A stretch of DNA of 58,458 nt from a virus (taxonomy: Duplodnaviria; Heunggongvirae; Uroviricota; Caudoviricetes), in the IMG/VR virus record IMGVR_UViG_2724679172_000006; one strand, 5' to 3'. Shown here piece after piece: positions 10,174 through 10,239 of the stretch (positions are counted from its first letter, which is position 1; the number at the start of each line of letters is the position of its first letter). Below the pieces are notes generated by a model. That model made no database searches. It had not been told where the DNA came from and saw only the letters and a program-made list of their open reading frames with translations. The position numbers and the translations under genes are program-made.

Positions 10174-10190
10174 ATTGCTCTAATAAAAAA
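10174..10190 (+). promoter_or_regulatory. C1-repressor-type operator (14 of 17)
   Basis: ATTGCTCTAATAAAAAA. Confidence 0.5.
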
Positions 10191-10214
10191 CGTGATGAGT
10201 GTACATCACGTTTT
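10187..10214. terminator. perfect palindrome, possible bidirectional intrinsic terminator
   Basis: AAAACGTGATG agtgta CATCACGTTTT, 11-bp arms with A-run and T-run flanks. Confidence 0.45.
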
Positions 10215-10222
10215 AAAAATAT

Positions 10223-10239
10223 GGAATTATTAGAGCAAT
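10223..10239 (-). promoter_or_regulatory. C1-repressor-type operator (14 of 17)
   Basis: GGAATTATTAGAGCAAT, inverted relative to the operator at 10174. Confidence 0.5.

Follow-up and report, generated by a model that had tools for sequence, protein, structure and literature searches.

C1 operators, a predicted promoter and a conserved sense-strand RNA hairpin at the pmgQ/pmgR junction of P1-like phage-plasmids

The window analysed here is a stretch of 58,458 nucleotides from a virus record (IMGVR_UViG_2724679172_000006) and is that of a P1/P7-type phage-plasmid. The 1301 bp around the site of interest are 99.5% identical to P1, P7 and other Punavirus records, and all 66 bp at 10174-10239 are the same as in the P1 (AF234172) and P7 (AF503408) reference sequences. 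About 690 P1-like plasmids from Escherichia, Salmonella, Klebsiella and Shigella also contain the region. The PmgQ protein encoded in the window is 100% identical to that of several E. coli plasmids, 99.6% to that of P1 and 98.3% to that of P7, so the source is a P1-like phage-plasmid and not the reference phage. In addition, the offset between window and AF234172 coordinates shifts by 210 bp between Op86 (10174-10239) and Op72a (23922-23934), so that the window must carry an insertion or deletion, compared with the P1 reference, at some point between approximately 10.2 and 23.9 kb.

The 66 bp lie between two genes on the minus strand. An earlier note on this DNA placed the genes correctly on that strand; its description of both as being of unknown function has to be amended, since they are the named genes pmgQ, with a glycosyltransferase PHROG, and pmgR. 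The genes at the locus are as follows.

10241-10942, minus strand: pmgQ (hdmD in P7), an ORF with P1/P7 annotation; PHROG glycosyltransferase family (E 1e-127).
10166-10169, minus strand: Shine-Dalgarno-like AAGG, 6 nt upstream of the pmgR ATG, read from the sequence.
9941-10159, minus strand: pmgR (shtA in P7), an ORF of 72 aa with P1/P7 annotation; first gene of the C1-controlled pmgR-pmgS unit.
8677-9939, minus strand: pmgS (shtB in P7), second gene of the unit; PHROG PmgS-like head morphogenesis (E 2e-195).

pmgQ is the final gene of the upstream cluster pmgN-pmgO-pmgP-ppp-pmgQ, and its stop codon lies 1 nt from the operator Op86a. On the plus strand, a GTG-initiated ORF of 70 aa (10161-10373) extends across the operator element in antisense to pmgQ; the P1 and P7 records leave it unannotated, and it is most likely spurious. 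Matches in several P1-like plasmids are restricted to PmgQ residues 173-233 (92-97% identity), a sign that pmgQ itself, and not the operator element, contains a mosaic or replacement boundary.

The curated records place two C1 operators and a predicted sigma-70 promoter, PpmgR, within the 66 bp.

10223-10239, minus strand: OpmgRa (former Op86a), annotated C1 operator, ATTGCTCTAATAATTCC; a protein_bind feature in both AF234172 and AF503408.
10233-10238, minus strand: annotated -35 of PpmgR (AF234172), TTGCTC, inside Op86a.
10210-10215, minus strand: annotated -10 of PpmgR (AF234172), TAAAAC, forming the first bases of the hairpin 5' arm described below.
10174-10190, plus strand: OpmgRb (former Op86b), annotated C1 operator, ATTGCTCTAATAAAAAA; a protein_bind feature in both AF234172 and AF503408.

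C1 recognises the asymmetric 17-bp consensus ATTGCTCTAATAAATTT, and there are 22 dispersed C1 operators in the P1 genome (PMC8546580). Op86a and Op86b each fit this consensus at 13 of 13 core positions and at 14 of 17 positions overall. Op86b is inverted with respect to Op86a, with 49 bp from centre to centre; ATTGCTCTAATAA occurs at 10174-10186 on the plus strand and its exact reverse complement at 10227-10239. In the 58-kb window there are five perfect copies of this 13-mer, compared with approximately 0.003 expected, and 12 copies with two mismatches or fewer, compared with 2.0 in shuffled sequences (none of 100 shuffles reached 12). Both sites are labelled monovalent C1-controlled operators in AF234172, where a note on OpmgRa states that it 'controls expression of pmgR and pmgS'. 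In the P7 record they are named Op(sht[a]) and Op(sht[b]). On the basis of this identity with the references, the 66-bp element is the Op86a/Op86b locus, a member of the P1 C1-operator set. The earlier note had described oppositely oriented operator copies bracketing a palindrome, had recognised the operators as P1-type and had proposed a comparison with operator pairs in P1. The arrangement is as it described, the same sites are curated in AF234172 and AF503408, and the comparison places them on the annotated Op86a and Op86b. The operator pair and the promoter were already known: the curated P1/P7 records have included them since the genome was annotated in 2004. At 12940-12956, the annotated Oppp (Op83) operator has four mismatches to the 17-bp consensus (CATGCACTAATTAATTT) and was overlooked by the two-mismatch search with the 13-mer core.

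Between the operators, AAAACGTGATG-agtgta-CATCACGTTTT at 10187-10214 forms a perfect 11-bp inverted repeat (arms 10187-10197 and 10204-10214) with a 6-nt loop. In the window, 10 distinct sites have a perfect palindrome of 11 bp or more with a loop of 8 nt or less, compared with 0.13 in Markov shuffles. The counts lie far above those in shuffles, which indicates that the 13-mer repeats and the inner palindrome are both real signals. The claim that the arrangement is almost perfectly symmetric over 66 bp does not hold, as the outer dyad (centred at 10206.5) and the inner dyad (centred at 10200.5) are 6 bp apart and, about the outer axis, only 28 of the 66 positions are matched by their complement. 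The inner palindrome directly adjoins the Op86b core, and a gap of 12 nt separates it from the Op86a core. Further perfect palindromes of 11-13 bp with short loops, and with no obvious T-run, are present at 2153-2177, 26028-26051, 31054-31080 and 34418-34446.

Transcribed in the sense of the surrounding genes, all of which share the minus strand, the inner palindrome gives a hairpin followed by a U-tract. A second hairpin of this kind lies beyond pmgS.

10187-10214, minus strand: sense RNA hairpin AAAACGUGAUG-UACACU-CAUCACGUUUU, with an 11-bp stem and a 6-nt loop, followed by UUAUUAG.
10185-10190, minus strand: T6 run (U-tract), followed by ATT; its first four T are paired with the 5'-arm A-tract, and the run overlaps Op86b.
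8624-8657, minus strand: terminator-like hairpin AATGCTGGTGG-AGTGCGC-CCACCAGCATT followed by T7; 11-bp stem, -17.6 kcal/mol.

The first hairpin begins 27 nt past the pmgQ stop codon. In P1 its calculated free energy is -12.9 kcal/mol in the sense orientation and -12.4 kcal/mol in the antisense orientation, and a 43-nt sense context folds at -13.4 kcal/mol (z = -6.6), with none of 200 shuffles equally stable. A strict scan, requiring a perfect stem of 8 bp or more, a loop of 3-8 nt and six or more T in an 8-nt window opening no more than 4 nt before the 3' end of the stem, detected seven sites in 58 kb, compared with 0.43 in shuffles. The pmgQ/pmgR hairpin is among these, on the coding strand and in an intergenic gap. 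The strict scan misses some good bidirectional terminators, for example that at 41262-41295, and a loose scan was unspecific (67 sites compared with approximately 36 in shuffles). A standard terminator scan left the pmgQ/pmgR hairpin unflagged because its greedy stem extends through the A/T pairs, so that the tail is left with too few T. Only a meaningless match to a miRNA precursor, far below threshold, was returned by an Rfam search. The P1 stem is A/U-rich, with G-C in four of 11 pairs, and of the six U, four are taken up in pairing with the A-tract; the efficiency of termination may therefore be modest.

Moving along the minus strand from this hairpin, the next site detected by the strict scan is that at 8657-8624, directly past pmgS, where 72 nt separate this gene from pap; the viewed part of the P1 record leaves it unannotated. 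Hairpins resembling terminators bracket pmgR-pmgS. A G+C-rich hairpin (ACATGCCGC...GCGGCATGT, -15.3 kcal/mol) is also present at 8027-8049, a short distance downstream of Op88 and of the pmgT promoters. With its T-run on the plus strand, and therefore antisense to pmgT, it would stop antisense transcription or, alternatively, sit in the pmgT 5' UTR.

Full-text literature searches for Op86, and for pmgQ together with a terminator, were empty, the terminator table of the 2004 P1 genome paper being outside their reach. A literature search for RNA end mapping in P1 likewise returned none, and the published P1vir RNA-seq is at gene level. AF234172 has no terminator features at all across the approximately 35 kb viewed, so the missing terminator feature at pmgQ/pmgR says nothing. 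In a knock-down study, dCas12a roadblocks in pmgO, pmgP, ppp and pmgQ left P1 plaque formation unimpaired, although the literature column of the P1 gene table gives pmgR as essential (PMC10695390). The hint of a terminator that these data provide is weak, as the pmgR knock-down itself was also scored non-essential.

The relatives compared comprised 139 from IMG/VR, all either of the P1 type or belonging to four divergent lineages, and two near-identical loci from a scan of genome contigs. The divergent lineages, in which PmgS is 69-75% identical, are the Salmonella Newport plasmid group (L004), the IMG/VR contig L088, Cronobacter phage JK004 (L003) and a JK004-like contig (L095). Their flanking DNA is approximately 72% identical to the P1 type, and all four keep the 66-bp length, both 13-nt operator cores (with one C-to-T change in L095) and the T6 run. 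Amongst 16 distinct haplotypes the Op86a core is unchanged in 15 and the Op86b core in all 16; the T6 run (columns 50-55) is also invariant in 16 of 16, and one population variant has T7 in place of T6. Compared with P1, the stem in the divergent lineages has two fully compensated pairs, one changing from G-C to A-U and the other from A-U to G-C. The proportion of cells that pair is 96.6% over these 16 haplotypes, and neither the pairing nor the covariation score was matched in any of 500 column shuffles. As the collections searched contain only four lineages beyond the P1 type, the covariation rests on few independent events.

JK004 and L095 have two to three added G.U pairs. Their sense hairpins have energies of -13.5 and -13.1 kcal/mol, respectively, while the antisense value is -5.8 kcal/mol. 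The G.U pairs hold the stem together on the sense strand only, which argues for selection on a sense-strand RNA, and against both a symmetric protein-binding DNA palindrome and a bidirectional terminator. The hairpin is conserved as a sense-strand RNA structure. Population variants of the P1 type are less instructive. Single-site stem variants comprise five that are wobble-compatible, three mismatch transitions and three transversions, the disruptive ones each being found in a single contig; they show no clear bias and do not discriminate between hypotheses. In sequence, position and conservation, the hairpin has the features of an intrinsic terminator, and it is most likely, as judged from sequence comparison, that of the pmgN-pmgQ unit. 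The late promoter LPpmgL lies upstream and might need read-through of the hairpin site.

The earlier note had also suggested a tightly repressed promoter, and here the curated annotation agrees: Op86a overlaps the -35 of the predicted PpmgR and Op86b lies just downstream. In favour of the annotated promoter, the -35 TTGCTC embedded in the operator is also that of P1ban, which is recorded as a sigma-70 promoter and not as a predicted one, and TTTTTAAAAC recurs after Op88 with its spacing unchanged. As annotated, TTGCTC-17-TAAAAC fits the consensus at seven of 12 positions, with four of six in the -10, which is without the final T, and a promoter scan gives no call in P1. The annotated -10 decays to TGAAGC in JK004 and to TAAAGC in L095, and the P1-type variants A1G and A4G are A-to-G changes at the second and fifth positions of TAAAAC. 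All of these changes preserve RNA pairing. An alternative -10 lies within the hairpin.

10198-10203, minus strand: hairpin loop TACACT, alternative -10 of the form TAnnnT; T37, A38 and T42 are invariant in alignment A3.

The loop hexamer is TATCAT in the Newport group, L088 and JK004 and TATTAT in L095, and in JK004 the promoter scan calls TTTACT-16-TATCAT (9/12). It may be this loop, and not the annotated TAAAAC, that serves as the -10 of PpmgR. An antisense promoter at Op86b was considered for P1 and rejected, there being no TAnnnT at suitable spacing. Elsewhere, an antisense promoter-like ATGATA-18-TAAAAT is called in the Newport group (L004 2727-2756) and in JK004 (L003 3228-3257); the P1 type lacks it. 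The -35 of this site corresponds to the hairpin loop read as its reverse complement, and the -10 overlaps with Op86a. Sequence next to the operators recurs from site to site (window 8070-8098, 27420-27456 and 10205-10239, minus strand): ATTGCTCTAATAAATATTG(A/T)TTTTTA is found at Op88 and Op68, and TTTTTAAAAC after Op88 and Op86a. This sharing suggests duplicated promoter-operator modules.

It is conceivable that the locus is only a C1-repressed promoter with dual operators, and that the palindrome is an A/T-rich by-product or a hairpin stabilising a 5' UTR or 3' end. The P1 and P7 records annotate just the operators and the promoter. Moreover, the stem is A/U-rich, and the TTTTTAAAAC of its 5' arm recurs after Op88, at a spacing identical to that after Op86a, without a matching 3' arm. 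However, silence in the P1 record is uninformative where the 35 kb viewed have no terminators at all, and an incidental palindrome would not be expected to show two compensated pairs and strand-specific G.U pairing while the loop and spacer diverge, nor an invariant T6 directly past the stem. A 5'-UTR hairpin would additionally require transcripts to start upstream of the annotated -10. Such a promoter without a terminator is considered unlikely, but it deserves some weight.

The 11-bp palindrome could instead be the DNA site of a dimeric protein that acts with C1, be it another regulator of the phage or a factor of the host. It is perfect in the P1 and Newport types and overlaps the promoter core, and coordinated changes in the two half-sites would also be expected of a symmetric protein site. 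Against this, the half-sites of JK004 and L095 are unequal at two to three positions, in exactly the manner that preserves G.U pairing on one strand. Nor do the perfect inverted repeats of the window include a second perfect copy of the palindrome, and no candidate protein is known. This explanation is distinctly improbable.

Still less probable is a bidirectional terminator clamped by a loop between two C1-bound operators. The A-tract, stem and T-tract do give similar energies on both strands in P1, and Heinzel et al. (1994) are reported to have described C1-mediated looping at the c1 operators. However, all neighbouring genes are on the minus strand, so that there is no convergent transcription to terminate, and 49 bp between operator centres would be very short for a protein-bridged loop. 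The tail in the antisense direction has its four U within the stem, followed by A5, and JK004 and L095 have lost the antisense hairpin. The 'bidirectional terminator' of the earlier note was therefore half right at most: hairpin and T6 resemble a terminator on the sense strand only, and the antisense hairpin falls to -5.8 kcal/mol in JK004 and L095.

The suggestion of a site-specific recombination site, with inverted repeats around an asymmetric core, is hardly credible and can be set aside: only the superficial architecture of inverted 13-mers flanking a spacer recalls one, but these 13-mers are the C1 operator core and are present at other promoters in the window, no recombinase function is annotated for the element in AF234172 or AF503408, a 541-bp query centred on the site is collinear and at least 80% covered in 679 of 687 plasmid records, and among the partial plasmid matches listed none ends within the element (query positions 235-300).

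The interpretation that accounts best for these observations, and which is held to be probable, is that the 66 bp form an Op86a/b junction at which a C1-repressed promoter is overlaid with a sense-strand intrinsic terminator. The U-tract of the hairpin is part of Op86b, and the 5' arm or the loop would provide the -10. Two inverted, asymmetric 17-bp C1 operators flank the start region of the pmgR-pmgS unit, Op86a lying over the -35 region and Op86b at approximately +13 to +29 if the annotated -10 is used or approximately +1 to +17 if the loop serves as the -10. With the help of the co-repressor Lxc, two C1 monomers would block RNA polymerase on either side of the -10 in the lysogen, and C1 bound at both operators would shut a promoter whose -10 sits in terminator DNA. 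Transcripts arriving from pmgN-pmgQ would end at the 11-bp hairpin and U6AUU. Once C1 is inactivated, transcripts would start in or just past the hairpin and read pmgR-pmgS as far as the putative terminator at 8657-8624. With the -10 in the 5' arm or the loop, RNA from PpmgR would start in the loop or the 3' foot; it could not form the hairpin and would continue into pmgR-pmgS. A terminator that acts on upstream RNA and is bypassed by PpmgR RNA would leave pmgR-pmgS insulated and solely under the control of C1.

Two extensions of this overlay of promoter and terminator can be envisaged. C1 at Op86b, the point of RNA release, might form a roadblock and so increase the termination of upstream transcripts in the lysogen. 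If C1 were lost, PpmgR would open and termination would relax together, making the site a repressor-tuned terminator-promoter switch; this is an improbable elaboration. In read-through RNA, modelling indicates that the operators could pair into an extended hairpin of approximately 24 bp (-28 kcal/mol), which could be a processing site for RNase III.

The importance of the site for discovery is small, as the operator pair is real but already annotated. The additions made here are correspondingly small, namely a conserved sense RNA hairpin with a U-tract, the bracketing of pmgR-pmgS by terminator-like hairpins and a possible -10 in the loop. If the overlay of promoter and terminator is correct, the junction would be a compact case in which a terminator and a repressed promoter occupy the same 40 bp. 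It may then be of some use in engineering P1 phagemids and in interpreting polarity in P1 CRISPRi and deletion screens.

The closest known system is the reference locus itself. OpmgRa/OpmgRb with PpmgR in P1, and Op(sht[a])/Op(sht[b]) in P7, are the same locus, with the same flanking genes, annotated features and sequence; the P1 and P7 records leave the inner hairpin unannotated, and the terminator reading is added by the present analysis. The bivalent operator Obanab (Op72a/b) at the P1 ban promoter resembles Op86 in having two inverted C1 operators and a -35 TTGCTC within an operator. At Op72, however, the 17-mers overlap by 6 bp to give an incomplete palindrome (P1 68667-68694), and there is a good -10, TAATAT, whereas the 17-mers of Op86 are 32 bp apart, enclose a hairpin and T-run, and are associated with a -10 that is weak or ambiguous. 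A repressor site just past the -10 or start, and inverted with respect to the gene, is found at Op86b, at lac O1 and at P1 Oppp (Op83), which follows PpmgN. Op86b stands apart in that it also overlaps the proposed terminator's U-tract; Op83, with its four mismatches, fits the consensus poorly. With enterobacterial and phage intrinsic terminators, the Op86 hairpin shares a stem-loop followed by a U-run, a coding-strand location where a gene cluster ends, and compensatory change in the stem. It is unlike the usual members of that class in being A/U-rich, in the pairing of its A-tract with its U-tract, and in having a -10 and two repressor sites within the same 66 bp.
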